From contig JAVBOR010000030.1 in assembly GCA_031550325.1 (NCBI GenBank), positions 11,309 through 75,308 of the forward strand: a stretch of 64,000 nucleotides of DNA, read 5' to 3'. A model generated the notes under the pieces. That model ran no database searches. It was not told the origin of the DNA and saw only the letters and a program-made list of their open reading frames with translations. The translations under genes and the position numbers were made by a program. This document shows positions 4,831 to 56,363 of the stretch, piece by piece; positions within the stretch are counted from its first letter, which is position 1, and each line of letters starts with the position of its first letter. The stretch is from Oscillospiraceae bacterium. Lineage in GTDB: Bacteria > Bacillota > Clostridia > Oscillospirales > UBA929.

Positions 4831-4859
4831 GGCCCGCCGGACATTTTGTCCGGCGGGCC
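4831..4859 (+). terminator. GC-rich hairpin downstream of S-layer gene (possible terminator, no U-tract)
   Basis: GGCCCGCCGGAC-ATTTT-GTCCGGCGGGCC, perfect 12-bp stem, 33 nt after stop codon; followed by TCAGCC rather than T-run. Confidence 0.45.
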
Positions 4860-4864
4860 TCAGC

Positions 4865-4990
4865 CTGTAGACAAAGGCCGCCTCTTCGTTCCTTTGCGCA
4901 AAACCACGTCGAGCCTGACGCCGAAGGCGGCGGGTCCATGCTCGGGCGGGCGGCTCTTCGCTTGGGCGGCTCTTCTTGCGTTTTGCGGGG
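4865..4990. repeat. Intergenic repeat locus R1 (truncated copy of the 209-bp composite: left GTAG end plus class III E hairpin)
   Basis: 4865-4937 CTGTAGACAAAGGCCGCCTCTTCGTTCCTTTGCGCAAAACCACGTCGAGCCTGACGCCGAAGGCGGCGGGTCC matches the first ~73 nt of 35508-35716 almost exactly; possible 3' arm GTTTTGCG near 4980. Confidence 0.85.
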
Positions 4991-6751: not shown

Positions 6752-6972
6752 TGTCAAAGAACCAATGGTTCTTTGACAAAGCGGGGACAGGCTCGCGTCT
6801 TTGTGAAGACGCGTTCCTGCTCCCGTTTGTAGACAAATCGAAGGTTTGTCTACAGACTAAAGGCATTCCCGGAATGAATCCGGGAATGCCTTTTGGTCTC
6901 ATCTTTTGCGGTTTTTATCCCAGAAAGCACCTTGCGGCTGCGCCGTCAGGCTCGGCGTAAAAACCGCAAAAG
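6752..6972. repeat. Intergenic repeat locus R2 (modules A-B-C-D-E, all intact)
   Basis: Hairpins: A 6752-6778 TGTCAAAGAACC-AATG-GGTTCTTTGACA; B 6794-6813 CGCGTCTT-TGTG-AAGACGCG; C 6828-6854 TGTAGACAAA-TCGAAGG-TTTGTCTACA; D 6859-6893; E 6903-6972 with perfect 14-bp outer stem CTTTTGCGGTTTTT/AAAAACCGCAAAAG. Confidence 0.9.
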
Positions 6973-7012
6973 GGTGCGGATGCGTGGGGCTCGTTGACGC
7001 GCGGGCAATGTG

Positions 7013-13597: not shown

Positions 13598-13770
13598 TTC
13601 ACCGCCCCATCATACGTATAAAGACGCCATTGGCTTAGTATAGCACATTTTCAGTATTCATTTCAAGGGAGTTATCCCCTAAAAAGGGACAACTTTGGAT
13701 AATAATCGTCAAAATCTCCGAAAGAAAGCGTCCAAAGCCGCGCCTACGTATGGCCGCAAGTCAATCTTCG

Positions 13771-13836
13771 CGCGTCTTCGCAAAGCCGCGAGCCTGACCT
13801 CAGCTTTGTCAAAAAACCGAGGGCTCTTTGACAAAG
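13771..13836. repeat. Intergenic repeat locus R3a (degenerate B plus A module)
   Basis: CGCGTCTTCGCAAAGCCGCG (B-like) and 13804-13836 CTTTGTCAAAAAACCGAGGGCTCTTTGACAAAG (A-like, degenerate near the loop). Confidence 0.7.
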
Positions 13837-13844
13837 ACTCAGAC

Positions 13845-13995
13845 TGTTGACAAAAGTTGCAGTCGCGATTCCAAAGCTTTTCCGACCAGCAAATCCGGAA
13901 CATTTCGCCGCATTAGGGCGCTTTAGCGCCTCCAATCTTCCGGATTTGACAACTCGCCACTGTGCGGCTTCGGGTCGGAAAAGTCTTTGTCATCA
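13845..13995. repeat. Second repeat family F, copy 1 (~150 bp)
   Basis: Aligns by eye to the reverse complement of 29443-29600 (e.g. GGATTTGACAACTCGCCACTGTGCGGCTTCGGGTCGGAA versus CCATTTGACAACTCACCGCTGTGCGGCTTCGGATCGGAA). Confidence 0.8.
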
Positions 13996-14107
13996 GCCTT
14001 TTTTGCCCATAAACGAATCTAAGCGGCGCGCCCGCAGCTCTGGCCCCGGAAGCGCCGCTCAGAAGTACAAAACCTGGTAAGAAGAGCCCCGCAAGCCTTT
14101 AGCCGCC

Positions 14108-26666: not shown

Positions 26667-26946
26667 TCCCGCAAACCGCTTCAGCGGGTTGATCCGCTCC
26701 CCGGCTTTGTCAAAGATCCGAAGGGGTTAAGGCAAGCCGGCGCATTCAAGCGCCTTTCGCAGTTTTAGTATAGCACCCCGCATGGGCTAAGGCAAGACGG
26801 TTGTTTTCCATGTAAAGCCGGCGCGTGTACACGCTCTATTATGAATTGACGTGGCCTCTTTGGCTTGGTATAATAATGCGCGTACGCGGCCCGCGGTGAG
26901 AAACGTTGCGCTTCGGGCGAAATGAAGAACCGGGAGGGGGGAGACC

Positions 26947-28368: not shown

Positions 28369-28552
28369 TTTGTCAAAGAACCTCCGGTTCTTTGACAAAG
28401 CGGGGGTCTGGCTCGCGTCTTTGCGAAGATGCGCAAAGAAATGCTTTCCCGAAGTGAATCCGTGAAAGCGTTGTGGTTCAATCTTTTTCGGCTTTCAGTC
28501 CAGCAAGGACCTGCCGGCTGCGCCGTCAGGCTCGACATGAAAACCGAAAAAG
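28369..28552. repeat. Intergenic repeat locus R4 (modules A-B-D-E)
   Basis: A 28369-28399 TTTGTCAAAGAACC-TCCG-GTTCTTTGACAAA; degenerate B 28414-28433; D 28439-28472; E 28483-28552 (stem CTTTTTCGGCTTTC/GAAAACCGAAAAAG). Confidence 0.9.
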
Positions 28553-28586
28553 GACGAGGACGCGAGGGGTTCTTTAACAACCTAGG

Positions 28587-28625
28587 CCGCCGAAAGCGAA
28601 ACGCTTTCGGCGGTTTATCGTTTTT
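28587..28625 (+). terminator. Canonical rho-independent terminator located after the repeat array, upstream of sigK
   Basis: CCGCCGAAAGCG-AAA-CGCTTTCGGCGG (perfect 12-bp GC-rich stem) followed by TTTATCGTTTTT. Confidence 0.7.
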
Positions 28626-29398: not shown

Positions 29399-29442
29399 CT
29401 CTCCCGGGGCTGCCCAAAGCAGTTGCTCCGCACCTCCCAGGC

Positions 29443-29600
29443 TGATGATTAAACAGTTCCGATCCGAAGCCGCACAGCGGTGAGTTGTCAAATGGGGAAC
29501 ATTTCGCCGCATCCATGCCTTAATGCGGCAAAATGTTCCCCATTCTCTGGTTGAAAAAGCTTTAGAGTCTCGACTGCGAAGGACAAACTTGACAATCAAA
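29443..29600. repeat. Second repeat family F, copy 2 (inverted relative to copy 1)
   Basis: Homologous to the reverse complement of 13845-13995; contains a 19-bp hairpin at 29494-29541 (GGGGAACATTTCGCCGCAT...ATGCGGCAAAATGTTCCCC, 1 mismatch). Confidence 0.8.
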
Positions 29601-31116: not shown

Positions 31117-31159
31117 GTGGGCTGGGGACAGAGGCTGATAAAAGCCCCTCGCATGCTCG

Positions 31160-31378
31160 TCCTTTTCCTGGATTCACGTCGAGCCTGACGCCGAAGGCGG
31201 CGGGTTCTTGCCGGACCGGATCCAGGAAAAATATGAACCACAACGGTTTCGGGAGTTCATTTCTCGAAACCGTTTCTCGTCAAACCGCCTCAGCGGTTTG
31301 ATCCTGCTTTCGTTTTGTCTAAGAACCAAAGGTTCTTTGACAGGCTTAGGCTGCTCAAGAATCTAGGTTCTTTGACAG
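31160..31378. repeat. Intergenic repeat locus R5 (E-D inverted, G, A, plus a half-A inside the CDS end)
   Basis: E 31160-31231 (stem TTTCCTGGATTC/GGATCCAGGAAA); D 31242-31274 (AACGGTTTCG...CGAAACCGTT); G 31281-31300 CAAACCGC-CTCA-GCGGTTTG; A 31313-31343; half-A GGTTCTTTGACA 31366-31377. Confidence 0.85.
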
Positions 31379-32937: not shown

Positions 32938-33087
32938 ATCGTCACCAACTTTCCGTTACTGCCTATATTATGCGCTTCAGCCGCGTTTTTGGCAAGGCCC
33001 TGTTCCCAAAAGGCAAAAATGGCGCCGATTTTGTTGAAAACGAGCAATACATTACTAGTCCTGGGAAAAATAGAATCCGATAATTTG

Positions 33088-33115
33088 TTGATTTTTCTAA
33101 AAATTGTGGTATACT
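33088..33115 (+). promoter_or_regulatory. Sigma-A promoter with extended -10 (TTGATT-16-TGgTATACT) in an AT-rich gap
   Basis: -35 TTGATT 33088-33093; TGG TATACT 33107-33115; faces the small ORF and vWA gene. Confidence 0.5.
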
Positions 33116-33200
33116 TATCTTTAGAAGGAAGCCTGTAATGATACGCAATCAGAATGGAATAAGAAGAAATGGGTTTGAAAAGAAAGGTGGAGCGAGAACT

Positions 33201-33368
33201 ATGAAGCAGGCGTACATAAAACCCAAGGCAACGTTGATCAGTCTCTTCCCGGAGGATCGCCTGTGCGCGGACGGCTGCCTTCGCGGGTATGGTGGTCCAG
33301 GCGCGGAGGAATATCCGCAGAACACGAACTGCACGATTCTCTTCGATCAGGGCCCCTCGGAATCCTAG
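33201..33368 (+). CDS. Small hypothetical peptide (55 aa, 3 Cys)
   Basis: MKQAYIKPKATLISLFPEDRLCADGCLRGYGGPGAEEYPQNTNCTILFDQGPSES; strong RBS AAAGGTGGAG 8 nt upstream of the ATG; between the predicted promoter and the vWA gene. Confidence 0.4.
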   Translation: MKQAYIKPKATLISLFPEDRLCADGCLRGYGGPGAEEYPQNTNCTILFDQGPSES

Positions 33369-33473
33369 ACGGGGTTTCGGTGCTTTCACAACAGCTAGAT
33401 GATTCAGGGCTCTCTTTTTGAGAGATACCTGGACAAGAGGATTTGGGTGAAAGTCTATTTTGAAGGTGATACG

Positions 33474-35453
33474 ATGAAAACTACACGAAAACGTCGCTTA
33501 CATGCAATGGTCGTTGCCCTCGTTCTGATGGCTATTCTCGCAAACATTCTGCTTGTCACGTTTGCGTATAATGGCCCCGGCGGACAAACGCTCAACTTGA
33601 GCGGGAAGGGCGCGGACCCCTCTACCATGGATTCCTGGAAGGATCAGAGCGGACCTGTCTTGGAAGACGGCGAGGTTTGGGCGGATAAAACCGTGCAGTA
33701 CGCCCGGCCGAATGACGGCGAGTTTACGGTCACGCTTTCGGCGCTGGCGCGTGAAAAAGCTCTTTATGAAGAAGCCGCCGAAAATTTGATTGTCCTGATG
33801 ATCGACTGGTCGGGCAGTGTGGTGGACTTTAATACGGCCTGCCATACCGCAGAAGGCGTCCTTGACACGATTTACGCAGATCGTCCGGAAAGCAGAATCC
33901 TGATGGTTTCTTACGGAACCAATAACGTCACCTCTCCTGTATTCAGTGACTCCGTTTCAGCAAAAGACTACCTGAATACATTTATCAAGGCCAACAAGCC
34001 CACCGTAGAGAAGGATAGCGGTACCAACATACAAGGCGCCATTTTCGCGGCTGAGCAAGCGCTTAAACTGCACATGGCAGCCTCCGGCGAACGGCTGGTT
34101 CCCTCCTATGTGCTGATCACGGACGGGGTGCCTACCTACGCGTATCGCTATGTGCTCAACGAAAGCGTCACGCCTGACGTCGGCTTGCGCATGGGCGACG
34201 GCCACACGCCGCACACCGCGTTTTACGGCCAGCCGCTGTTCAGTTTCCAGACCATCCTTCAGGCGAATGCCTCCAAGAAAGCGCTGCCGGGGAGCCTGTT
34301 CTTTACCTTCCGCTCTCCTGGCGACAACAGCAGCAGCGCATCGGCAACCTTGGGCGCTGCTCTGCCCAATGAAGACCTTCTGTACATACACGACGGCAAA
34401 TACGAGGTTCAAAAGCTTATCCCGGGCACCAACCCCGAGGAGTGGGAAGAGTATACAAACGTTTCCAATCCCTTTGTGAATATGTTCCACGCGTTTACCG
34501 ATGAGCAGACCTTTACCGAGCCCTATTTTGTGGAAGTCGATCGATATGTGGGCGGCCAGTACCGCACCGGATACTGGGTGTATCCCACCTTTATCGAAGA
34601 GAGCCTGCCCCAGAACTACACGCCGTACGCCGACATTGCGGCCGGTCTGAACGTGAATCCGGCCGACACCGGACTGACCAGTATGCTTGCCCAGCAGCGC
34701 GTTGTCCGCAACGGCGTCATCAAGCCGCTGCGCGCTGAGACAGATATGGTCATCACCGACGTGCTGGGCGAAACCTTTACGCTGGACGCTCAGGCGCTCA
34801 CCGCCGCCGCCGCCGCGCAGGCGCCGGGAACGAGCGTGGCTTACGACGAGACGACCAGAACCGTCACGTGGACCATCCCCGCTGCGCTTGTGCCTCTGCT
34901 GCCGTGCACGGAGGATTATCAGGAGCCCAGTAACGTAGCGCCGCTCCGGCTGAGTTATGATATTTTGTTCAGCCCCGCTGCCGGCCAGCTGGACAACTGG
35001 TCCGAGGGAATGCGCTACTACACAAACGCGCGCACGATGCTTGCGGGCGTCGAGTCCAATCCGAACCTTGCCACCTTTGCTCCCAACCTTCTTGCCGGAC
35101 GCTACGTAAACGAGACCGAGACCATCCTGCTTCCCAATCGCGGTTGGGTTGAGCTGACGGTCAGGACTCCGCCCACAAGCAGCGGCAGGACCAGCACAAC
35201 GCCGAGCGACCCCACGAGCTTTTCTCCGCCGCCCAGCGATGAGTTTACCACGCCCAGCATTCCGATCGATTTTCCGGTTTCTCCCTCTCCCAGCGATGAT
35301 GGGTTTGAGGATACCAGCATTCCGATTGACCCGCCCATTCCGCCGACAGGCGGCGTGAACTCAGCTTTATTCATGCTTTTCGGGGGTATAGCTCTGGTGG
35401 GCTGTGGTCTCCTGCTCGGAAGAAAAGTCGGCGGAAACGTGTCCCAGGATTAA
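33474..35453 (+). CDS. vWA-domain surface protein with LPXTG-like (IPPTG) C-terminal sorting signal
   Basis: Signal/TM MKTTRKRRLHAMVVALVLMAILANILLV; MIDAS DWSGS...TN...TDG; Pro/Ser/Thr-rich stalk; C-terminus IPPTGG, then hydrophobic stretch, then GRKVGG. Confidence 0.75.
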   Translation: MKTTRKRRLHAMVVALVLMAILANILLVTFAYNGPGGQTLNLSGKGADPSTMDSWKDQSGPVLEDGEVWADKTVQYARPNDGEFTVTLSALAREKALYEEAAENLIVLMIDWSGSVVDFNTACHTAEGVLDTIYADRPESRILMVSYGTNNVTSPVFSDSVSAKDYLNTFIKANKPTVEKDSGTNIQGAIFAAEQALKLHMAASGERLVPSYVLITDGVPTYAYRYVLNESVTPDVGLRMGDGHTPHTAFYGQPLFSFQTILQANASKKALPGSLFFTFRSPGDNSSSASATLGAALPNEDLLYIHDGKYEVQKLIPGTNPEEWEEYTNVSNPFVNMFHAFTDEQTFTEPYFVEVDRYVGGQYRTGYWVYPTFIEESLPQNYTPYADIAAGLNVNPADTGLTSMLAQQRVVRNGVIKPLRAETDMVITDVLGETFTLDAQALTAAAAAQAPGTSVAYDETTRTVTWTIPAALVPLLPCTEDYQEPSNVAPLRLSYDILFSPAAGQLDNWSEGMRYYTNARTMLAGVESNPNLATFAPNLLAGRYVNETETILLPNRGWVELTVRTPPTSSGRTSTTPSDPTSFSPPPSDEFTTPSIPIDFPVSPSPSDDGFEDTSIPIDPPIPPTGGVNSALFMLFGGIALVGCGLLLGRKVGGNVSQD

Positions 35454-35471
35454 CAGATAAGCAGTTTTATC

Positions 35472-35503
35472 AGGATCCCCCTTGAGTATTCAAGGGGGAT
35501 CCT
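35472..35503 (+). terminator. Perfect 13-bp hairpin after the vWA gene (possible terminator, no U-tract)
   Basis: AGGATCCCCCTTG-AGTATT-CAAGGGGGATCCT, 19 nt after the stop. Confidence 0.45.
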
Positions 35504-35507
35504 CAGT

Positions 35508-36048
35508 CTGTAGACAAAGGCCGCCTCTTCGTTCCTTTGCGCAAAACCACGTCGAGCCTGACGCCGAAGGCAGCGGGTCCCTGCTGGACTGGTTGAGCGC
35601 AAAGCATGGAAACAAGTGACTTCCACGAATTCACTCCGGGAAAGTCACCCAATGCGCGTCTTCACAAAGACGCGTTCCTGCTCCCGTTTGTAGACAAATC
35701 GAAGGTTTGTCTACAGTCTCAACAAACCGCTGAGGCGGTTTGCAGGGAAACGGTTTTGAGAAATGAATTCCCGAAACCGTTGAGGTTCCTATTTTTCCTG
35801 GATTCAGTCCAGCAAGAACCTGTCACTTGCAGCGCCAGACTCGACGCGAATCCAGGAAAGGGACGAAGGCGCAAAGCTCCGGTTTGACTACAAAACGATG
35901 AAAAGTGATCGGCTCTGTGGAGCCTCCCAAAGAAAGGCTTTCCCGGAGTGAATCCGAGAAAGCCTTTCTATTTCATCTTTTGCGGTTCACATCCCAGAAA
36001 GGACCTTGCGGCTCCGGCCGCAAGGCTCGGCGTAAAAACCGCAAAAGG
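35508..36048. repeat. Intergenic repeat locus R6, largest array (209-bp composite plus G plus two further D-E units plus H)
   Basis: E 35533-35605(-), D 35612-35650(-), B 35655-35674, C 35688-35716, G 35722-35743, D 35746-35782, E 35792-35860, H 35886-35926, D 35932-35968, E 35976-36048. Confidence 0.9.
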
Positions 36049-36135
36049 ACGAGCGCGCGGGACTGTTGCTTTGCACCAAGCTCCAGTAGCTCCTGGAACA
36101 AGGCAGGTGAACACCCCACGCGGAGACTCCAGCTA

Positions 36136-36180
36136 TATAACAAAGTGTCAAAAAAACAGACAATTCGACAGTTTGTTATA
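36136..36180 (-). terminator. Hairpin downstream of addA (weak terminator candidate)
   Basis: TATAACAAAGTGTC ... GACAGTTTGTTATA (14-bp stem, 1 mismatch, 17-nt A-rich loop). Confidence 0.25.
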
Positions 36181-36227
36181 TGGAGAGGCCGTGGATGACC
36201 GTGTCGGCGGCGGTTCGGCTGATTTGT

Positions 36228-39200
36228 CTACTCCAGAGCCAGGGCCTGATCGATGGCGAAGAAATAGACGAGCTTTTCTCCGACCTCCAGCCCGGTCATG
36301 CGCTGTGCGGCGTGGGCGTAAGTCTCCAGCTGCACGCGGTAGTGCTCGGCGCGCGCTGGCGCGCCCTCGGGGCTTATGGAGTCAGTCTTGAAATCCAGCA
36401 CAATCAGCTTGCCGCTTTCGACGAAGAAGCAGTCAATAACGCCCTGCAGCAAAATCTCCTCCCCCATGGCTGTCGTGGCGCCGGTCAGGACGTCGGCGGG
36501 CTCGAGCATGGAAAACTTGCACTCCCTCCAGAGCCTTGTTGCCTTCAGGACGCGCTGGCCCAGGTCGCTCTGAAAGAACAAGGCTATTTTTTCGGGGGAC
36601 ACGGCGTCTGTTTGCTCGGGCGTGAGGATGCGCCGCTTTGCAAGGCGCGACAGCTCGCCCCGGACACCGCCGGCGCTCTGGCAAGCAGCATACGAAATAA
36701 ACTGCATGGCCAGATGGTAGGCCTGCCCGCGCTCCGGCCCCGATAAGCCGCGCCCGCGCGCTGGGCTTTGCGAAAGAAAGGTGCCGGTGCCCTCCCAAAC
36801 CTCAAGATCGGTATAGCGGCCCTTCAGCTGGGTCACCGTCATCTTGGACGGCAGGTCGACCGCGCCGGCGTAAGGGTAGACAAAGGCATCGCGCGCCTGA
36901 ATCGCGTCGCGTTCGGCGCCGGGGGCGGGCGCGGCGGTCAGTGCCGCCGGCGGGGCGGCCAGCCAGTCGGGCTCGGCCACGCCCAGCAGAAGATCCATGA
37001 AGCTGGAAGCCTCACGCAAGCTCTGCGCGGGCGTCGTCTCGCTGCCCAGCATGATCAGCTTGTTCTGCGCGCGCGTCATCGCGACATACAGCAGGCGCAG
37101 CTCTTCGGCCTTGTGCTCGCGCGTGAGCTCCTGCCGCACCGCGTGGTAGGCGGCGGTAGGGTACTCGCACAAGTCGGTGCGCCGCTTCAGGCCGCAGCCG
37201 GTCGTTTCGTGCATCAGGAGCTTGGCGTTCATATCGCGAAGGTTGTACGACCTGCCAAGGTCGGCCAGCACGACAACGGGAAACTCCAGACCTTTGGACC
37301 TGTGAATGGTCATGAGCCTGACGGCGCTGTCCGTGTGCACGCGGGTGCGGGAGAGTGTCTGCCGGTGAAGCCACGGCAGAAAGGCGGCCAGGCCGCTTTC
37401 GTGCGGGCAGGCTTGGGCAAGCTCTAAAAAAGCCATGAGATCGGCCTGGCCCTGTGCGTCAAACTTTGTGTCCAGATCGGTTTGCGCGTAAATACGCGAC
37501 ACCAGCCGCCACACGGGAAGGTCGGGCGCGAGGTAGCGCCACTGGCGCAGCAGAATGAGCAGCCGCTGGCTCTTGAGCTGCGTGTCGGCCAGCAGGCAGT
37601 CGTACAACGACAGCTCCGACACGGCGCGAAGCGACGCCAGCTCCTCGGCAGTAAACGCGAACGCGGGCGAGCGCAGCGCGGCGAGTAGCTGGACGTCGTT
37701 GCGCGGGTTGAGTGTGACCTCCAAAAGCGAGGTGATCGCCCGCACGGCGCCGGACTGTTCGTCCTCGGCAGCGTCGGAGTTTGCGTCCAGACCGGCGTCG
37801 CGCAGCGCCGCCAAATAGGCCGGCGCGCGGTTTTTCAGCGAGCGCAGCAAAATAACGCAGTCCCCCGGGCGGGCAAAACCCGCGTCGATGAGCGCGCGAA
37901 GCCGCGCAGCCACGGCGCGCGCCTGCTGAGCCAGCTTATCGCTCTCGCCTGTGTCGGGCAAGGCGATGAGCTCGACGGCGGGCTCCTGCTGCGGGGGAAA
38001 GCCCAGACCGCTCCTGAGGGGCGGCCCATAGTCCATCTCGGCGTCCGCGCGCGTCATCAGGCGCTCAAGCGTGTGGTTTACGGCCGAGAGAACCTCGGGC
38101 CGCGAGCGGAAGTTGCTGGTCAGATACACCTTGCACGGGCCGGCCGCCGCCTCGCTCCACAGCGCAAACTCGTCGAGCTTGCGCAGAAAGATGGTCGGGT
38201 CGGCGTGCTGGAACCTGTAAATGGACTGGCGCACGTCCCCCACATAGAACACATTGTCCCTGCCGGCGGACAGCGCGTCGATCAGCGCGTCCTGGCGCGC
38301 GTTGACGTCCTGGTACTCGTCGACCAGAATCTCGGCAAAGCGCGCGCTCACGGTCAGCCCTGTTTCGGTCGGGCGGCCGCTCTCGTCGGTGAGCAGGGAG
38401 AGCGCGGCAAGCTCATAGTCGGTGAAGTCGGCCAGCTTGCGCGCCGCCTTCTCCTGCCGGTAGGCCTCGTCAAAGCAATTCACGGCGAAAAAGAGCCCGC
38501 TGAGCACCTCCTGCGTGTCGGCGATGTCGGCAAGATTGTCCTCATGCGTGCAGGAGATGCGCTCGCACAGAGCCCCGACGCCCTTTTTCCAGCCGTCCCG
38601 CTCGGCGCGAAGGCCTTCGGCCTGATCCTTCGCGGCGTCGTCGACGGCTTTAAAGGGCTTGAGCTTGGCAAAGCTCAGCGCGTGAAGCGCCTCAAAGGCT
38701 TTGTCCCAGCCCGCGCCCAGCGCGCCGTCCAGCGCGGTCAGCGCGTCGATATCGCTCAGGAGCGCCGGCGCGTACGCCGTGTACAGCGCGGGATCGTCCA
38801 CGCCCTCCAGGGCGCTTTGCGCTTGGGCGCGCCACTTGGCCAGCTGATGGCGCGCGTCCTCCAGTACGAGCTCTTCCCAGAACTGTACGCGCCTGTCGGA
38901 GGCGCGCAGCTGCTCTGCCCGCCAGCCCGCCGGGCCGCGCATCGTTCGGGTCTTTCGCCAGGTTCTCTCGACAAGCTCCGAAACCGCCCTGTCACCGCGC
39001 ATGTCCACAAAGGCGTCGACAAAGCGCCCGAACTGCGGCAGCCCGCCGCCTTCCAGCTGGTCGTACAGCTCGTCCAGCACGCGGTTCAGGGTGTCGCCGA
39101 ACAGCCCGGCCGCCTCGCTGTCCTCGCAGACCCTGACGTCGGGCGGCAGGACGCTTTGGGCGGCGAACTCGCGCAGCAGCTCGACGCAGTACGCGTGCAG

Positions 39201-39503
39201 CGTGCAAATGCGCGCCGTGTACAGGCGGTTCAGCTGGCGGCGCAGATGGCGGCTATCCGGGTCGGCCTCCATGCGCCCGCGCAGCGCGCGGAGAATGCGC
39301 GCGCGCATCTCCCCGGCGGCGGCGCGCGTATAGGTGATGAGCAAGAAGTCGTCGATGTTGCGCGGGCAACTCTCGTCTGTGAGATAGGCCATCAGCCGCT
39401 CGACAAGCACAAGGGTCTTGCCCGCGCCTGCCGCCGCCGAGACCAAAACGGTGCGGCCGCGCAGCGTGACGGCGGCGTGTTGTTCATCCGTGAGCTCTCT
39501 CAT
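36228..39503 (-). CDS. addA: ATP-dependent helicase/nuclease subunit A (AddA)
   Basis: 1091 aa; UvrD-type motifs VSAAAGAGKT, ILVDEYQDVN, TIHRSKGLEFPVV; C-terminal RecB-type nuclease region (QGVIDCFF...LDFKTD). Confidence 0.9.
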   Translation of the reverse strand: MRELTDEQHAAVTLRGRTVLVSAAAGAGKTLVLVERLMAYLTDESCPRNIDDFLLITYTRAAAGEMRARILRALRGRMEADPDSRHLRRQLNRLYTARICTLHAYCVELLREFAAQSVLPPDVRVCEDSEAAGLFGDTLNRVLDELYDQLEGGGLPQFGRFVDAFVDMRGDRAVSELVERTWRKTRTMRGPAGWRAEQLRASDRRVQFWEELVLEDARHQLAKWRAQAQSALEGVDDPALYTAYAPALLSDIDALTALDGALGAGWDKAFEALHALSFAKLKPFKAVDDAAKDQAEGLRAERDGWKKGVGALCERISCTHEDNLADIADTQEVLSGLFFAVNCFDEAYRQEKAARKLADFTDYELAALSLLTDESGRPTETGLTVSARFAEILVDEYQDVNARQDALIDALSAGRDNVFYVGDVRQSIYRFQHADPTIFLRKLDEFALWSEAAAGPCKVYLTSNFRSRPEVLSAVNHTLERLMTRADAEMDYGPPLRSGLGFPPQQEPAVELIALPDTGESDKLAQQARAVAARLRALIDAGFARPGDCVILLRSLKNRAPAYLAALRDAGLDANSDAAEDEQSGAVRAITSLLEVTLNPRNDVQLLAALRSPAFAFTAEELASLRAVSELSLYDCLLADTQLKSQRLLILLRQWRYLAPDLPVWRLVSRIYAQTDLDTKFDAQGQADLMAFLELAQACPHESGLAAFLPWLHRQTLSRTRVHTDSAVRLMTIHRSKGLEFPVVVLADLGRSYNLRDMNAKLLMHETTGCGLKRRTDLCEYPTAAYHAVRQELTREHKAEELRLLYVAMTRAQNKLIMLGSETTPAQSLREASSFMDLLLGVAEPDWLAAPPAALTAAPAPGAERDAIQARDAFVYPYAGAVDLPSKMTVTQLKGRYTDLEVWEGTGTFLSQSPARGRGLSGPERGQAYHLAMQFISYAACQSAGGVRGELSRLAKRRILTPEQTDAVSPEKIALFFQSDLGQRVLKATRLWRECKFSMLEPADVLTGATTAMGEEILLQGVIDCFFVESGKLIVLDFKTDSISPEGAPARAEHYRVQLETYAHAAQRMTGLEVGEKLVYFFAIDQALALE

Positions 39504-42803: not shown

Positions 42804-43145
42804 GAGTTTTCCCCGACTCACTCCGGAAAAACCCTCTCTGCAAACCGCCTCAGCGGTTTGATCCAATCCTTCGCTTTGACAAGGAACCGGAGCCCTTTGT
42901 CAAAGGGTGTAAACAGAAGCGGTATCCGCGCTCCTTTGCGCAAAACCACGTCGAGCCTGACGGCGTAGCCGGCAGGTCCTTGCTGGACTGGTTTAGCGCA
43001 AAGGAGCGAAACAAGAGACTTTCACGGATTCATTCCGGGAAAGTCGTTCTCCGCGCGTCTTCGCAAAGACGCGATCTAAGCCCCCGTTTGTAGGCAAACC
43101 GAAGGTTTGCCTACAGCCTGCAAAGAACCGAAGGTTCTTTGTCAG
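42804..43145. repeat. Intergenic repeat locus R7 (D-G-A-E-D-B-C-A)
   Basis: G 42841-42860; A 42874-42905; E 42931-43006 (CTCCTTTGCGCAAAACC/GGTTTAGCGCAAAGGAG); D 43015-43046; B 43053-43073; C 43087-43116 (GTAGGCAAACC-GAA-GGTTTGCCTAC, compensated variant); A 43118-43145. Confidence 0.9.
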
Positions 43146-43152
43146 TTTATTG

Positions 43153-44991
43153 TTATTTTGTTGTCAGTGCGTTATAGAGCTGAACAAACGTGACGTCGGC
43201 CATCTCGCGCGAGAAGGTCATTTTGGGCTCAAAGCCCTTGGCGGTGCCGTTCATGATGCCGTTGGCCGAGACGTAGTCAACAGCGCTCGTTGCCCATGAG
43301 GAGATCGTGGCCTTGTCGGAAAAGCTGTTGGCCGGGGCAGCCGACATGAGCCCGAGCGAGCGCACGGTGTTGGCCAGCATGACGGCCGCCTGCTCGCGGG
43401 TGATGTCCCCGTTCGGGTCGAAGATGGTCGTGGACTTGCCCGCTACGACGCCCAGCTTGTTGGCCGCCACGATGACCTTGTCGCTGGTGTCGGTAAACGT
43501 GTTGGTCGAAAGGTCGATGCCGCGTTCGGCGATCAGCTGGTCGAGCGTTTTGCCGGTCACCGACTCCATGAGCATGACCGCCTGAAGGCAGAACTCGGCG
43601 CGCGTGGCGTTTTTCTTGTAGTCGCCGATCAGCGAAGCGGGGATCAGATTATGGGCGTAAGCCGCCTCGATGTGCACGGTCGCCCACGAGCTGGCCTCGC
43701 CGAGCTTGAGGTCGACAGGAAGCTCGCCGGGCACGCGGACGCCCGACAGAATTTGAACGGGACTCATGCGCCCGGTGGCCGAACCGTCGCCAATCGAGCC
43801 CTCTGTGTTGCTTTGGCCCCAGGACCACAGCGTGCCGTCCTTTTTCAGCGCCAGCGTACTGTAGTTGCTGAGTACGGCGCTTTCAACCCCGTCAAGAACC
43901 TTGACAGGAGCCGAACGGTTTTCTTCGGTGCTGTCGCCGAGCTGTCCATAGAGGTTGTCTCCCCACATCCACAGCGAGCCGTCGGCCTTCAGCGCGCCGA
44001 AATGTACGGCCCCGCTAAAGAGTGAGGCAGCGCCCGTCATCTTCAGCGCCGGCTGGCTTCTGGAGAATACTATTCTGGTCTCGGTTGATTCAACCGAAAG
44101 CGTAGCCTGATAAACGTCTCCGTTTTGCTTAAGCATGACGACATCCTGAATACCGTTGACAATGCTGACCACCCCGTCGGCGTACTTTTCAGGTGTTTCG
44201 ACAAAGTCTACATTGGCGGTTGTGGACGTGACATTTAATCCCTTCACCCCCCAGAACCACACGGTACCGTTGGTCTTCAGGGCAAAGGTCCCTATCAGAT
44301 CTCCGGAAACCGCGGCAACGTCGCTGAGCAGCTGAGACGGGGCCGTCGAGCCGCTTGCTCCCAGATATTCGCTCATTCCATAGTATTTGTCGCCCCAAGT
44401 CCAGAGGGTGCCGTCCAGCTTGACCGCCATGCCCTGGTAGATGTGGATGTCCATGTTGCGAACGCCGTCCATGAGTTTGACCGGGCTCAGCCGGTCCCTC
44501 GTCGTGCCGTCGCCGATCAAACCGTTTGCGTTGCTTCCCCAGCTCCAGAGACTGCCGTCCTTTTTCAGCATCAGCTGCGTCTCGCCGTTTGTAGTGACGC
44601 TTTTGACGTCTTTGGCGATCTCAACGGGGCTCGGCCGATCGACCCTGCTGCCGTCGCCGAGGTAACCTACATTGTAACCCCAGCCCCAGAGCGTGCCGTC
44701 CTTTGTGATTGCGTAGTTGGTTTCGCCTATCGCCATGACGGAGATGACGTCAGTCATGACTTTGACCGGGCTCAGCCGGTCGGTCGTCGTGCCGTCGCCA
44801 ATCTGGCCGTAGTTGTTGAATCCCCAGCACCACAGTGAGCCGTCGGCCTTAATGGCCATGCCGCCGTCCAATCCGGTGTCAAATGTGCGCGTGAGGCGTT
44901 CCTGGGGCGCGACCGCGTCCGCGGCGAGGGCTGGCAACGCTGATAACAGCATGAGAAGGGCAAGAACCAGACAAAGTAATCGTTTTTTCAT
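43153..44991 (-). CDS. Secreted RCC1-repeat beta-propeller protein with three C-terminal SLH-like domains (paralog 1)
   Basis: Signal peptide [23 protein letters not shown] (GGAGGA RBS); repeated GSLW.WG.N..GQ(L/I)GDG units; C-terminal ...[14 protein letters not shown], ...[16 protein letters not shown]. Confidence 0.8.
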
Positions 44992-45132
44992 AATAATTCC
45001 TCCAAAACTAGCAAAGTAGTCTTCACGGCGCGGCCCGCCAACCGTTGCGTCCGGGCGGCGCGTGAAGCTCAAATGTTATTCCCAGATGACGCCCATCGGA
45101 GGTACGCTAAAAAGCCGCCAGGCTCTCCAGCT

Positions 45133-45406
45133 TGCAGACAAAGAGGGCTTTGTCTACAAAACGATGACAAATGATCGGCTCTGTGGAGCCTCATAAAGGA
45201 ATGTTTTCCCGGAGTGAATCCGTGAAAGCATTGCGGTTTAATATTTTGCGGTTTTTGTCCCAGCAAGGACCTTGCGGCTCCGGCCGCAAGGCTCGGCGTA
45301 AAAACCGCAAAAGGACGAGAGCGCGTAAGGTTTATCTTCAGTCTGACGTCTGCCGCCGAAGGCGGCAGACCCTCGTTTTGACAAAGAACCTATGGTTCTT
45401 TGTCAG
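45133..45406. repeat. Intergenic repeat locus R8 (C-H-D-E-hairpin-A)
   Basis: C 45133-45158; H 45155-45192; D 45198-45234; E 45242-45313 (ATTTTGCGGTTTTT/AAAAACCGCAAAAG); hairpin GTCTGCCGCC-GAA-GGCGGCAGAC 45348-45370; A 45376-45406. Confidence 0.9.
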
Positions 45407-45413
45407 TTTATTA

Positions 45414-47222
45414 TCAGTTTGCTGTCAGTGCGTTATAGAGCTGAACAAACGTGACGTCGGCCATCTCGCGCGAGAAGGTCAGTTTGGGCTCAAAGCCCTT
45501 GGCGGTGCCGTTCATGATGCCGTTGGCCGAGACGTAGTCAACAGCGCTCGTGGCCCAGGAGGAGATCGTAGCCCGGTCGGAAAAGCTGTTGGCCGGGGCA
45601 GCCGACATGAGCCCGAGCGAGCGCACGGTGTTGGCCAGCATGACGGCCGCCTGCTCGCGGGTGATGTCCCCGTTCGGGTCGAAGATGGTCGTGGACTTGC
45701 CTGCCGCGACGCCCAGCTTGCTGGCCGCCACGATGACCTTGTCGCTGGTGTCGGTAAACGTGTTGGTCGAAAGATCGATGCCGCGCTCGGCGATCAGCTC
45801 GTCGAGTGTTTTTCCGGTCACCGACTCCATGAGCATGACCGCCTGAAGGCAGAACTCGGCGCGCGTGGCGTTTCTGGTGTAGCTGCCGATCAGCGAAGCG
45901 GGGAGCAGATTGTTGGCGTAAGCCGCCTCGATGTGCACGGTCGCCCACGAGCTGGCCTCGCCGAGCTTGAGGTCGACAGGCGGAAGCGGCATGCCGGTCA
46001 GCACTTTCAGCGGATAGGTGATGTGCGTGCCCAGGCCGGCGTCGTCGACATTCTGTCCGTTCAGGCCGCAGACCCAAAGACTGCCGTCTGTTTTCTCAAT
46101 CATGGTGCTGGTTCCGCTGACAAACGGCAGCGAAAGCACGTCCAGAGACATGGTCTTGACCGGGGCCGCGCGGTCAACGACAGTGCCGTCGCCGAGCTGT
46201 CCGAAATGATTGGTCCCGCGGGACCAGAGCGAGCCGTCCTTGAGAAGGAAGGAGGTCTGCGTCTGCGCGCTGACCATGGACACGACGTTTTCAATCAGCT
46301 TGACGGCGGGCTGGCGCGTCATCGACGTAACGCCGGATTTGGTCTCCGGCGGCGTCTCGATCGTCCAGGCCACGCCGGCGGTATTCAGGTAGTTCAGCGC
46401 GTACAGCTCGGCAGTGACGCCCGTAACGCCGGTCAGCTGCCTGACGGGCGCGGCGTCCAGGGTCACGCTGTCCTTGGCCAGCGTCTTCAGGCCCCAAACA
46501 TAAAGCGTCGAATCCTCGAGGACGGCGCCGGCCAGCGTCTGCCCCAGCGCGAACGCCTTGACGTTTTCCAGCACCTTCACAGGAGAGGTTCCGTCGGTCT
46601 GCGCGCCGAGAAGCCCGTATCTGGACTGGCCCCATGACCAGAGGCTTCCGTCCGTTTGGAGGGCAAGGGTTTGATCGCCGTTGGTGGCGACGTCCAGCAC
46701 ATCGTCCATCACTTTAAAGGGCTCAAGCGGGTTGGTTTTTCCCGCCGCAAGATAGCCGTGGTCGATCCCCCAGCACCAGAGGCTGCCGTCCGTTTGAACG
46801 GCGTAGGTAAACGTCGCGCCGGGCACCACGAGAGAGACGTCCGGGAAAATATAGGTCGGCGTGAGCCGGTGAGCGGCGTCGCCGGTGCCCAGGATTCCGT
46901 TGGTGTTTCTTCCCCAGGCGTAGAGGTCGCCGTTGTCCAGAACGGCAAATGACGAGCGGTTATAGGCGAACACGGCGCGCACGCCGTCCCGCAGGTTGAC
47001 CGGCGAGGGGCGGGCGTTGATGCCGCCGTCGCCAAGCTGTCCATAGTGGTTGGCGCCCCAGGAGTACAACGTTCCGGTGGCGGTGACTGCCAGAAAGTGG
47101 TTCTGCCCGGCGGCGTACGCGTGGCCAAGCCGGTCTGCCGGCGTCTGCGCCGCGAGGCTGTGCCCTGCAAGGGACAGGACAAGTGCGAGGGCCAGCGCGA
47201 TGCTCAGAATTTTGCGTTTCAT
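45414..47222 (-). CDS. Secreted RCC1-repeat beta-propeller protein with three C-terminal SLH-like domains (paralog 2)
   Basis: Signal peptide MKRKILSIALALALVLSLAGHSLA; RCC1-type repeats; C-terminal ~190 aa nearly identical to paralog 1. Confidence 0.8.
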   Translation of the reverse strand: MKRKILSIALALALVLSLAGHSLAAQTPADRLGHAYAAGQNHFLAVTATGTLYSWGANHYGQLGDGGINARPSPVNLRDGVRAVFAYNRSSFAVLDNGDLYAWGRNTNGILGTGDAAHRLTPTYIFPDVSLVVPGATFTYAVQTDGSLWCWGIDHGYLAAGKTNPLEPFKVMDDVLDVATNGDQTLALQTDGSLWSWGQSRYGLLGAQTDGTSPVKVLENVKAFALGQTLAGAVLEDSTLYVWGLKTLAKDSVTLDAAPVRQLTGVTGVTAELYALNYLNTAGVAWTIETPPETKSGVTSMTRQPAVKLIENVVSMVSAQTQTSFLLKDGSLWSRGTNHFGQLGDGTVVDRAAPVKTMSLDVLSLPFVSGTSTMIEKTDGSLWVCGLNGQNVDDAGLGTHITYPLKVLTGMPLPPVDLKLGEASSWATVHIEAAYANNLLPASLIGSYTRNATRAEFCLQAVMLMESVTGKTLDELIAERGIDLSTNTFTDTSDKVIVAASKLGVAAGKSTTIFDPNGDITREQAAVMLANTVRSLGLMSAAPANSFSDRATISSWATSAVDYVSANGIMNGTAKGFEPKLTFSREMADVTFVQLYNALTAN

Positions 47223-53629: not shown

Positions 53630-54424
53630 GTGAAAAAAGAGAGACGTATCGTCGTCAAGGTGGGCACGTCGACATTGACCCATCCGTCCGGGAAGCTGTT
53701 TTTGGAGCGCATCGACAAGCTTGCCCGAGTGGTCTCGGATGTGCAAAATGCCGGACACAAGGTTGTGCTGGTCACCTCCGGCGCGATCGGCGTGGGCGTT
53801 TCGGCGATCGGACTGCCCCGGCGGCCGGAGGAGCTGAAGTACAAGCAGGCCGCCGCGGCCATCGGGCAGTGCCGGTTGATGCACTTATATGACAAGCTGT
53901 TTGGAGAATATGGCCGGGTTGTGTCGCAGATTCTACTTTCCCGGCCCGACACCGACATCCCCGAGCGGCGCGAAAACCTGCTGCGCACGTTCGAGGCACT
54001 GCTGGAGTGGGATGTTCTGCCGATCGTCAACGAGAACGACTCGGTGTCCCCTGAAGAAATCGAGTCCGCCCGGTCCAAGATCTTCGGCGACAACGACACG
54101 CTGTCGGCGATCGTCGCGCGGCTTATCAGGGCAGACCTCTTGGTGCTGCTGACGGACATTGACGGGCTGTACGACGCCGATCCCCATCAGAATCCCGGCG
54201 CCAGGCTCGTGCCGCGCGTGTCGGAGATTACGCCGGCGCTTCGGCAGGCGTCCGGCGGCGCGGGGTCGGCGCGCGGCACCGGCGGCATGCAGACCAAGCT
54301 GGCCGCCGCCGAAATCGCGCTGGAGTGCGGGTTTGATATGGTTGTGGCCAACGGAGCAAGCCCGTCCCTGCTCGCAGAGATTGTGGCGGGGAAAGACGTG
54401 GGAACACTATTTAGGAGGGATTAG
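53630..54424 (+). CDS. proB: Glutamate 5-kinase (short form without PUA domain)
   Basis: GTG start: VKKERRIVVKVGTSTLT; VTSGAIG, NENDSV, DNDTLSA, GTGGM motifs; the upstream Gly/Pro/Arg-rich part of the ORF (53462-53629) is judged non-coding. Confidence 0.9.
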   Translation: MKKERRIVVKVGTSTLTHPSGKLFLERIDKLARVVSDVQNAGHKVVLVTSGAIGVGVSAIGLPRRPEELKYKQAAAAIGQCRLMHLYDKLFGEYGRVVSQILLSRPDTDIPERRENLLRTFEALLEWDVLPIVNENDSVSPEEIESARSKIFGDNDTLSAIVARLIRADLLVLLTDIDGLYDADPHQNPGARLVPRVSEITPALRQASGGAGSARGTGGMQTKLAAAEIALECGFDMVVANGASPSLLAEIVAGKDVGTLFRRD

Positions 54425-54425
54425 C

Positions 54426-55673
54426 ATGTCTGTCAAACTGTTGGCGCAGAACTGCAGGCAGGCAGCCGAGCAGCTGCGCATCGCGCCCATCGGGGTGCGC
54501 AACGCCGTTTTGGAGCGCATGGCAAGCATGCTCACAGAGCATCGCGAGCAGCTTCTGGCGGCAAACGCCGCCGACGTGGCGCACGCGCGGGAAAACGCCC
54601 TGAGCGAGGCCATGGTCGACCGGCTGACGCTGAACGCGGCGCGCATAGAGGGCATGGCGGCCGGTCTGCGCGAGGTGGCCGCGATGCCCGACCCGATCGG
54701 CTCGATGGACTTTGTCTCCCGCCGCCCGAACGGGCTTCAGATCGGCTGCAAGCGCGTGCCGCTGGGCGTGGTGGGCGTCATCTTCGAGTCGCGGCCCAAC
54801 GTCACGGTCGACTCGGCTGCCCTGTGCCTGAAGGCCGGGAATCCCTGTTTGCTGCGCGGCGGGAAAGAGGCCATTTCGTCCAACATGGCGCTGGCCGGCC
54901 TGCTGCGCGCGGCGCTTGAGGCCTCCGGGCTTCCGGCCGACTGCGTCTGCCTGGTGGAGGACACTGACCGCGCGAGCGCCGTGGAAATGATGGGGCTCGT
55001 CGGGCTTCTGGACGTGCTTGTCCCGCGCGGCGGCGCGTCCCTGATCCGCACGGTCGTGGAAAACGCGCGCGTTCCGGTCATTCAGACCGGGGAGGGCAAC
55101 TGCCACATCTATGTTGATGAGGACGCCGATGAGGACATGGCGGTCGGCATCGTCGTCGACGCCAAGTGCTCGCGTCCGTCAACGTGCAACGCCGCCGAGA
55201 CGCTGCTGGTTCATCAAAAGATCGCGCCGGGCTTTCTGAAGGCCTGCGCAAAGGCGCTGCTGGAGCGCGGCGTCGAGCTGCGCGGCTGTGAGCGCACGCG
55301 CGCGATTCTGACGCAGGGCGTCAAGGAGGCCACGGAGAGCGACTGGCAGACCGAATACAACGACCTCATTCTGGCAGTGCGCGTGGTCGACGGGCTGTAC
55401 ATGGCCACGGCGCACATCGCAGCGTACGGTACAAAGCACAGCGAGGCGATCGTCACGCGCAACCTCTTCACTGCCCAGCGGTTTATTGACCGCGTTGACG
55501 CCGCGGCGGTGTATGTCAACGCCTCGACACGGTTTACAGACGGCGGGGAGTTTGGGCTTGGCGCCGAGCTGGGCATCTCAACCCAAAAGCTGCACGCGCG
55601 CGGTCCGATGGGCCTGCGCCACCTCACCACCGTTCAGTATGTCGTGATTGGCGAGGGGCAGGTCAGGGGGTAA
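54426..55673 (+). CDS. proA: Gamma-glutamyl phosphate reductase
   Basis: ATG 54426 two nt after the proB stop; GVIFESRPNVT, CNAAETLLVH, ST.FTDGGEFG motifs. Confidence 0.9.
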   Translation: MSVKLLAQNCRQAAEQLRIAPIGVRNAVLERMASMLTEHREQLLAANAADVAHARENALSEAMVDRLTLNAARIEGMAAGLREVAAMPDPIGSMDFVSRRPNGLQIGCKRVPLGVVGVIFESRPNVTVDSAALCLKAGNPCLLRGGKEAISSNMALAGLLRAALEASGLPADCVCLVEDTDRASAVEMMGLVGLLDVLVPRGGASLIRTVVENARVPVIQTGEGNCHIYVDEDADEDMAVGIVVDAKCSRPSTCNAAETLLVHQKIAPGFLKACAKALLERGVELRGCERTRAILTQGVKEATESDWQTEYNDLILAVRVVDGLYMATAHIAAYGTKHSEAIVTRNLFTAQRFIDRVDAAAVYVNASTRFTDGGEFGLGAELGISTQKLHARGPMGLRHLTTVQYVVIGEGQVRG

Positions 55674-55675
55674 GG

Positions 55676-56128
55676 CTGTCAAAGAACGTGTGCTTTCGCT
55701 TTGTGAAAGCACACGTTCTTTGACAAAGCGGGGGTTGGATCAAACCGCTGTGGCGGTTTGCAGAGTAGGGCGTTCCCGGAATGAATCCGGGAACGCCCTA
55801 AGACTGTAGACAAACCTTCGATTTGTCTACAAACGGGAGCAGGAACGCGTCTTTGTGAAGACGCGCATTGGGTGACTTTCCCGGAGTGAATCCGTGAAAG
55901 TCACTTGTTTCCATGCTTTGCGCTCAACCAGTCCAGCAGGGCCTAGCCGCCTTCGGCGTCAGGCTCGACGTGGTTTTGCGCAAAGGAACGAAGAGGCGGC
56001 CTTTGTCTACAGGCAGACAAACCGAAGGTTCGATGGGAAACGGTTTCGAAGAGTGAAATCCCGAAACCATTGTGGTTCATTTTTTTTGGATTCAATCCAG
56101 CAAGAACCTGTCGGCTGCGCAGCTGAGA
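55676..56128. repeat. Intergenic repeat locus R9 (A-G-D, 209-bp composite, then a D-E unit)
   Basis: Extended A 55676-55728 (20-bp perfect stem GTCAAAGAACGTGTGCTTTC/GAAAGCACACGTTCTTTGAC); G 55741-55760; D 55766-55800; C 55804-55832; B 55845-55865; D 55871-55904; E 55915-55987; D 56036-56073; truncated E 56082-56128. Confidence 0.9.
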
Positions 56129-56185
56129 GCAGGGCTTTGCGGAAGTTACTTCCGCAAAGCCCTGCTCTTGTTTACTCTTTTTGGT
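56127..56185 (+). terminator. Strong rho-independent terminator after the repeat array downstream of proBA
   Basis: GAGCAGGGCTTTGCGGAAGT / ACTTCCGCAAAGCCCTGCTC (20-nt perfectly complementary arms) followed by TTGTTTACTCTTTTTGG. Confidence 0.7.
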
Positions 56186-56334: not shown

Positions 56335-56363
56335 CTTTACTTTTTGAAGCAATATGGTATAAT
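56335..56363 (+). promoter_or_regulatory. Candidate promoter with extended -10 (TGgTATAAT) for the second LRR gene
   Basis: TGG TATAAT at 56355-56363; weak -35 CTTTAC 17 nt upstream. Confidence 0.5.

Follow-up and report, generated by a model that had tools for sequence, protein, structure and literature searches.

Modular, multi-hairpin intergenic repeats with MITE-like members at gene 3' ends in an Oscillospiraceae bacterium

What kind of element is the 209-nt segment at 35508-35716, which returns as its reverse complement at 55804-56012? An original prediction, made from the letters of the 64,000-nt stretch of DNA analysed here (the window), had read the pair as a recently mobilised, non-autonomous composite with inverted termini. 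The window has a GC content of ~60% (0.602), falling to 0.49 within 33001-34000, a part that holds the 5' portion of a VWA/pilin-like ORF (33399-35453) and its upstream gap. Domain scans found genes for AddAB, SLH-domain and LRR surface proteins, DegV and a glycolytic cluster. Named AddA homologues belonged to Oscillospiraceae, Flavonifractor and Sporobacter at 38-41% identity, and the closest AddA relative reached 53%, indicating that the lineage is poorly sampled. Exact-protein matches showed that the same strain is otherwise on record as short Logan contigs only, from SRR23967709.

MAFFT and BLAST alignments confirmed the reverse-complement relationship and lengthened it by 3 nt, to 35508-35719 on the plus strand (copy A) against 55801-56012 (copy B), so that the shared block reaches through ...CTACAGTCT. 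The gap-free alignment contained 6 mismatches in 212 nt (97.2% identity), a match that cannot be due to chance. As had been noticed by manual alignment, these mismatches are clustered, 4 of them within 8 nt at the E apex and 2 in D, and the unit runs from CTGTAGACAAAGG to GGTTTGTCTACAG(TCT) with the internal order end, E, D, B, C. Its 11-nt terminal inverted repeats (CTGTAGACAAA...TTTGTCTACAG) are perfect, and A/B identity stops exactly at them. Because the flanks differ right at the terminal repeats, a segmental duplication including flanks was rejected. The flanks had been called unrelated; they differ between A and B, yet themselves consist of modules of the same family. Two convergent ORFs, 33399-35453(+) (VWA domain) and 36228-39503(-) (AddA), enclose the 774-nt gap in which copy A sits; copy B occupies the 763 nt that separate 54159-55673(+) (aldehyde dehydrogenase) from 56437-59100(+) (LRR protein). 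Compared with their surroundings, the elements are slightly richer in AT (GC 0.545-0.557 vs 0.602 for the window), and the ORFs across them are only spurious overlaps typical of high-GC sequence.

The element had been described as present twice, which proved too few: a third full copy at 42907-43116 matches A and B at 82% identity, and six more units in the window carry the E-D core. The partial copy predicted at 4865-4937 is real and extends over 4858-4942 at 96% identity, yet it is not 5'-truncated; its left end is kept and its right side is lost. The C-type copies are as follows.

4858-4942, plus strand: truncated C-type copy, 96% identical to A; end arm and first two thirds of E; partial covariance-model match at 4904-4949
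35508-35719, plus strand: copy A, full C-type; end arm 35508-35520, spacer, E 35535-35604, D 35616-35648, B 35655-35674, spacer 35675-35688, C hairpin 35689-35716, then TCT; D-to-E direction on the minus strand, covariance-model match 35520-35657(-), 132 bits
42907-43116, plus strand: third full C-type copy; covariance-model match 42919-43056(-), 134 bits
55801-56012, minus strand: copy B, full C-type, 97.2% identical to A; C 55804-55831, B 55846-55865, D 55872-55904, E 55916-55985, end arm 56000-56012; covariance-model match 55863-56000(+), 135 bits

The third full copy and the truncated copy have their left boundary in common with A and B, and the C hairpin of the third copy (43089-43116) carries the compensatory change GTAGGCAAA/TTTGCCTAC. 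With three full copies and one truncated copy, a length below 300 nt, no coding content and terminal inverted repeats, the 209-nt unit is a MITE-like composite, and it has probably been active recently: three copies of at least 96% identity in different flanks fit recent proliferation.

Folding of all repeat-bearing gaps defined the modules from which this unit and its relatives are built.

Module G: TGTCAAAGAACC-n3-GGTTCTTTGACA
Module C: (C)TGTAGACAAA-n6/7-TTTGTCTACA(G), its arms also given as CTGTAGACAAA/TTTGTCTACAG
Module B: CGCGTCTT-n4-AAGACGCG
Module F: CAAACCGC-n4-GCGGTTTG
Module H: GGCTC-TGTG-GAGCC
Module D: variable stem with proximal TTYCCCGG and the conserved loop ARTGAAT
Module E: long three-helix hairpin

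D plus E (~130 nt) recurs as a block more regularly than any other, and the conserved loops of these two hairpins are ARTGAAT, CAGTCCAGCAAG and CTCGACGTG. When each unit was extended into its flanks, module order was identical in all of them, giving non-coding elements of ~210-230 nt with several hairpins. In the D-to-E direction, a palindrome P (G or C) is followed by a spacer (AARCGGGNGCAGGAW), a small hairpin X (B, F or H), D, a linker and E; on the distal side come a second spacer (GACGAGnnnGCGAGG) and a third copy of the P arm, resulting in terminal inverted repeats of 11-13 nt. The 209-nt element noted first is thus exactly one complete C-type unit, with the left C-hairpin arm and the third, distal arm as its terminal inverted repeats, and other units carry palindrome G in place of C. 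The distal arm was of the same class as P in all seven classifiable units (permutation p ~0.04, a modest value to which A and B do not contribute independently). The symmetry of the P palindromes is kept by compensatory changes, TGACAAAG/CTTTGTCA at 43120, at 45379 and in a unit from another species (contig L037). The G-type ends may resemble the terminal repeats of the ISL3 family, a likeness that was given no weight.

A covariance model of the D+E core found nine full units in the window (122-149 bits), all intergenic, plus three partial ones. By self-BLAST, the gap that holds copy A (35454-36227) is tiled nearly throughout by segments that recur in other intergenic regions. The remaining units and associated hairpins are listed below.

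6752-7000, plus strand: U1, G-type; G 6752-6778, B 6794-6813, C 6826-6856, D-E 6851-6986, end arm GGGCTCGTTGAC
28371-28582, plus strand: U2, G-type; G 28371-28397, B', D-E 28431-28566, end arm GGTTCTTTAACAA
31128-31345, minus strand: U10, G-type; in minus-strand order G 31316-31342, F 31281-31300, D-E 31148-31283, end arm
35473-35507, plus strand: GC-rich hairpin T without a T-tract, then TCAGT; abuts the end arm of copy A
35720-35900, plus strand: U4; F 35723-35742, D-E 35740-35875, C-type end arm GGTTTGACTACA
35900-36075, plus strand: U5; H hairpin, then D-E 35925-36061
43120-43146, strand unspecified: G hairpin, 6 nt past the stop codon of ORF 43153-45072(-)
45133-45340, plus strand: U7; C-like hairpin 45133-45160, H, D-E 45191-45327, end arm GGTTTATCTTCAG
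55677-55800, plus strand: start of the array that contains copy B; long G hairpin 55677-55730, F 55741-55760, D-only hairpin 55758-55797
56013-56174, plus strand: U9, truncated; degenerate F, D 56030-56068 and the 5' half of E, running into a T-tract terminator at 56124-56170

U1, U2, U10 and the L037 unit share the layout of the C-type copies with G arms instead; in U2 the terminal inverted repeats (TTGTCAAAGAACC...GGTTCTTTAACAA) match at 12 of 13 positions. The right-hand part of the 209-nt element, predicted to recur near 6794, does so as the B-C block of U1 (6794-6861, 91% identity to copy A). The B hairpin here lies within a longer stem at 6779-6828 (AAGCGGGGACAGG...CCTGCTCCCGTTT), one side of which is a G-type spacer and the other a C-type spacer in reverse complement. 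A single B hairpin is thus common to two oppositely oriented half-elements, suggesting that palindromic modules have been sites of recombination. Neighbouring units also share palindromic ends. The C hairpin at 35689-35716 is common to copy A and U4, which together form a ~390-nt foldback, and the end arm of U4 doubles as the left end of U5.

G hairpins similar to that at 43120-43146 occur at 45379-45405 and 13807-13833. The hairpin that starts the array containing copy B is 54 nt long, begins 3 nt after the aldehyde dehydrogenase stop codon and encloses another perfect palindrome, GTGTGCTTTC...GAAAGCACAC, within its loop. A 300-nt direct repeat (43121-43420 and 45382-45681, 96% identity) spans the 3' ends (SLH region) of the tandem paralogous RCC1-repeat/SLH genes 43153-45072(-) and 45414-47222(-) and takes in the G hairpin directly after each stop codon; it is a gene duplication that carried the G module along.

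The observation that the left end abuts a GC-rich hairpin followed by TCAG in two cases was borne out at 4831-4864 and 35473-35507 (TCAG(Y)), where the truncated copy is preceded by a hairpin at 4831-4859 plus TCAGC and hairpin T starts 19 nt past the stop codon of ORF 33399-35453. A third such hairpin (45348-45376) adjoins a related unit, U7 being followed by TCTGAC and a GC-rich hairpin at 45348-45370. The three have wholly different stems and no T-tract, and each is followed by (G)TCAGN and an E-side end arm (CTGTAGACAAA or CTGAAGATAAA). They may reflect a preference for targets on the 3' side of hairpins, or else be one more module of the element that covaries.

Target-site duplications in the flanks had been proposed as a check on mobility. 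None was found around copies A, B or the third copy, as no consistent direct repeat flanks them even with boundaries shifted by up to 4 nt. A 6-nt duplication (CAGTCT) at copy A was rejected, being part of a near-palindromic AGNCT extension of the terminal repeat, with no matching left flank at copy B. The absence of a target-site duplication at the two youngest copies argues against a classic DDE cut-or-copy transposon. As originally stated for transposases, no mobilising gene of this kind was found in the window: a Pfam scan of ~50 window ORFs detected no transposase, integrase or HUH domain. The proposed recent mobilisation of a non-autonomous element thus finds support in a discrete non-coding unit, in three copies at 96% or more and in their differing flanks, but not in target-site duplication.

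We favour, with somewhat better than even confidence, the reading that A and B are young members of the C-type subfamily of a large, undescribed non-coding repeat family and were mobilised as proposed. The family itself is best read as new non-autonomous MITE/BOX/BIME-like repeats, a type of element known in other bacteria. For its spread we infer the following course. The elements would be non-autonomous and would be copied as DNA by an enzyme whose gene lies outside the window and which would recognise the conserved loops together with folded or paired ends. New copies would land next to existing palindromes at gene 3' ends, either terminator-like hairpins or family members, and such landing would build chains of alternating-orientation units with common palindromic ends. 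Recombination between shared palindromic modules would turn these chains into mosaics, and the elements would from then on persist as stable arrays of hairpins, within 3' UTRs and in the gaps between convergent genes.

How the folded structure is conserved was evaluated with an alignment of D+E from the nine window units and the one from the other species, using RNAalifold and then a covariance model. RNAalifold predicted 37 pairs, 18 of which showed compensatory double changes, vs 1-4 when partners were slid by 1-3 columns. With the same sliding, the fraction of paired cells dropped from 94.6% to 29-47% and the covariation score from 0.429 to 0.04-0.09; 0 of 500 shuffles reached any of the three observed values. 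The most conserved columns are loops and internal loops, while the stems covary. Neither strand was favoured: read on the D-to-E strand, the pair lists gave ~14 G.U cells vs ~12 A.C cells, and copy A folded equally well as ssDNA on its two strands (z = -5.4 and -5.6). Folded in isolation, its termini pair and close the whole element. Orientation is mixed as well, because in co-directional gaps U2, U6, U8 (copy B), U9 and the D-only hairpin run D-to-E in the sense direction and U7 and the truncated copy at 4858 in antisense. Taken together, the balance of G.U and A.C cells, the equal folds and the mixed orientation argue against a single strand-specific RNA function, and would fit a constraint at the DNA level or on both strands.

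The placement of units relative to genes is likewise uneven. Full units occurred in all three convergent gaps, in 4 of 16 co-directional gaps and in none of the three divergent promoter gaps (1,589 nt in total). Divergent gaps (13760-13860 and 26667-26745) hold only module fragments and no D-E unit: the first has B and G with an L-like end (13771-13860), the second degenerate forms of F and G (26672-26742). Units were found only at gene 3' ends, some of them between the stop codon and the true terminator. Six of seven G hairpins begin 3-41 nt past a stop codon, the G-like hairpin of L037 starts 8 nt past the rpoC stop, and G-type units are always sense to the preceding gene. The modules are not intrinsic terminators themselves, a possibility rejected for want of a T-tract; within 35300-36400, two consensus terminator sites were found, equal to the shuffle expectation, and none on E, D, B, C or T. 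T-tract terminator-like sites lie outside the elements, after the arrays (28583-28617 and 56124-56170), and a promoter-like site for the next gene follows the copy B array at 56336-56363. The position of these terminator-like sites puts at least two arrays, including that of copy B, inside 3' UTRs.

Conserved loops above covarying stems would also fit a function selected by the host. As RNA, the modules could form hairpin arrays in 3' UTRs that protect transcripts or punctuate them; as DNA, they could be palindromes bound by proteins. In either case, selection would maintain them and recombination or duplication would spread them. Consistent with such a function, arrays at 28371-28617 and 55677-56170 lie between a stop codon and a T-tract terminator, the G hairpins stay close behind stop codons with G-type units always in the sense of the gene, and the family is conserved in a second species, again directly past a gene (rpoC). 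However, C-type units occur in both orientations relative to transcription, neither strand has an excess of G.U over A.C, and the modules themselves are not terminators. The density of the repeats, their truncated copies, the nesting and chaining of units, the three copies of at least 96% identity in different flanks and the absence from the nearest sampled relative are all typical of selfish repeats. We consider host function an unlikely basis for the family.

A scan of 596 Gb of genome contigs with a 19-nt E-core pattern yielded one true relative among the matches listed, the rest being chance: L037, an Oscillospiraceae MAG of another species, in which a D-E unit scoring 127 bits stands directly downstream of rpoC. 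RpoC relatives of L037 reached ~74% at best, and their contigs (L147-L149) have tight intergenic gaps with no covariance-model match. The contig of the 53% AddA relative (L090) has no modules and is too distant to count as an empty site. Of the 56 stretches obtained from a metagenome scan with the D core, most were chance matches to a single conserved gut coding gene. Isolated D-like hairpins appeared in only three of them (L137:322-395, L141:964-1020 and L119:2950-2975), on unrelated metagenome contigs; they are intergenic, contain TTCCCGGARTGAATCCGGGAA and have stems lengthened by unrelated complementary bases, and in L141 more hairpins flank the D-like one. The D motif may have a wider distribution than the complete family. 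A 21-nt gapped E pattern gave 0 matches in viral contigs, and BLAST found no similar DNA in plasmid and phage records.

A non-autonomous family mobilised from elsewhere has to be weighed against a REP/BIME-REPIN system, in which the palindromes, especially C with its GTAG head, would be REP-like units moved as ssDNA hairpins by a RAYT encoded elsewhere, that is, by a single-copy, IS200/IS605-like HUH tyrosine transposase. Hairpins kept by compensatory change, as here, have been reported to be common in REPINs (PMC3116915). The GTAG at the 5' end of the C palindrome, the missing target-site duplication, the extragenic location at gene 3' ends and the lack of strand preference all agree with this scheme, as do the clusters of units with alternating orientation and shared ends, A and U4 forming an inverted doublet. 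On the other hand, the unit measures ~210 nt and holds 4-5 different hairpins, vs a REP of 20-40 nt or a simple doublet. The GTAG is paired inside the stem with no free 5' head, G-type units lack it, and neither a RAYT nor a Y1 transposase was found among the ~50 window ORFs scanned. RAYTs are, moreover, mostly proteobacterial. Movement of these palindromes by a RAYT is quite unlikely in our judgement.

The near-identity of A and B could alternatively reflect gene conversion of two older resident members rather than new insertion. The four mismatches in 8 nt look like a conversion patch, indicating that recombination is clearly acting on the copies, and the E apex of copy A is the variant found in the truncated copy at 4858-4942 and in U10. 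Both loci are also full of family modules able to supply flanking homology, and conversion between family members may have affected this pair. Yet the identity block stops exactly at both terminal inverted repeats and not at arbitrary points, the immediate flanks differ (T hairpin and F at A, degenerate F and D at B), and the truncated copy, at an unrelated locus, is also 96% identical. Conversion as the origin of the A/B match accordingly appears improbable beside mobilisation of young C-type units.

A further scheme, to which we give little credence, would reverse the roles of the parts. The G and C palindromes would be gene-end target or recombination sites, and a cargo of spacer, X, D, E and spacer would insert beside them and duplicate the 10-13 nt right arm. 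If true, it would account for the complete hairpin at one end of every unit and the matching third arm at the other, for the covariation of arm type between the two ends and for the placement of G hairpins 3-41 nt past stops. It would also mean hairpin-targeting, structure-dependent insertion in a Clostridia lineage that has barely been sampled, with a duplication that derives from the palindrome and is unusually long.

Known classes of structured sequence were set aside: a known structured RNA, since nothing in the whole window reached the Rfam 15 gathering threshold, a group II intron fragment, since no group II intron domain matched, and a tRNA-derived SINE, since there are no tRNA-like features. 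When five intergenic regions bearing repeats were scanned by E-value against Rfam, the only matches were sub-threshold ones to generic hairpins such as miRNA precursors, the best relevant one being Clostridiales-2 at 16.9 bits vs a threshold of 58.6. A separate, unrelated ~100-nt repeat, present in two intergenic regions in inverted orientation (13900-14000(+) and 29440-29540(-); ~80% of aligned positions identical, mean column identity 86%), had no Rfam match either.

The repeats add a well-resolved, structure-conserving modular family to gut-type (Oscillospiraceae-like) Clostridia, for which we found none described in the literature. They also account for the way short-read assemblies of this organism shatter in intergenic regions: independent short-read contigs of the same strain end at 4887, 36024, 42864 and 55985, each within a repeat module, the behaviour expected of genome-wide high-copy repeats. 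The D-E covariance model provides a marker with which the family and its mobilising enzyme can be sought in complete genomes, and the end hairpin with a third matching arm at stop codons offers a handle on how gene 3' ends are chosen, a question that stands for BOX, SPRITE and many REP-like repeats as well. In genomes of this kind, the arrays should be masked before sRNAs, terminators or 3' UTR regulators are predicted.

Among known systems, Correia/NEMIS of Neisseria and ERIC/IRU of enterobacteria are structured MITE-like repeats (summarised in PMC3049150 and PMC3184786). Their likeness to the present family lies in a structured, MITE-like form of 100-170 nt with terminal inverted repeats, in co-transcription with flanking genes and in the occurrence of full-length and deleted variants. 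By contrast, they are single long imperfect palindromes, Correia with 26-bp repeats and a TA duplication, whereas the present family strings separate hairpins together, has short terminal repeats of 11-13 nt and shows no duplication. REP/BIME elements, and REPINs with their RAYT (Bertels & Rainey 2011, PMC3116915; reviewed by Delihas 2011, PMC3184786), resemble it in being extragenic palindromes at gene 3' ends, in mosaic alternating clusters, in compensatory changes, in the absence of target duplication and in a GTAG motif, here in one module. They differ in that the unit described here is ~210 nt long with 4-5 distinct hairpins, has its GTAG within a stem, is accompanied by no RAYT in the window and comes from a different lineage.

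BOX elements of Streptococcus pneumoniae and S. suis have the form boxA-boxB(n)-boxC and are modular non-coding intergenic composites, with modules in "particular permutations" and with terminal inverted repeats (Croucher et al. 2011, PMC3049150). [quoted passage not shown] The present family shares with BOX a Firmicute host, modularity, terminal inverted repeats, extensive base-pairing and nested or adjacent copies, a likeness of architecture only. Unlike BOX, it shows no target-site duplication, resides in a genome of ~60% GC and consists of discrete covarying hairpins with interchangeable G and C palindromic ends and a third arm copy. Judged by architecture, the BOX modules of streptococci are the closest analogues of the repeats described here, and the REP/BIME-REPIN systems are close as well.
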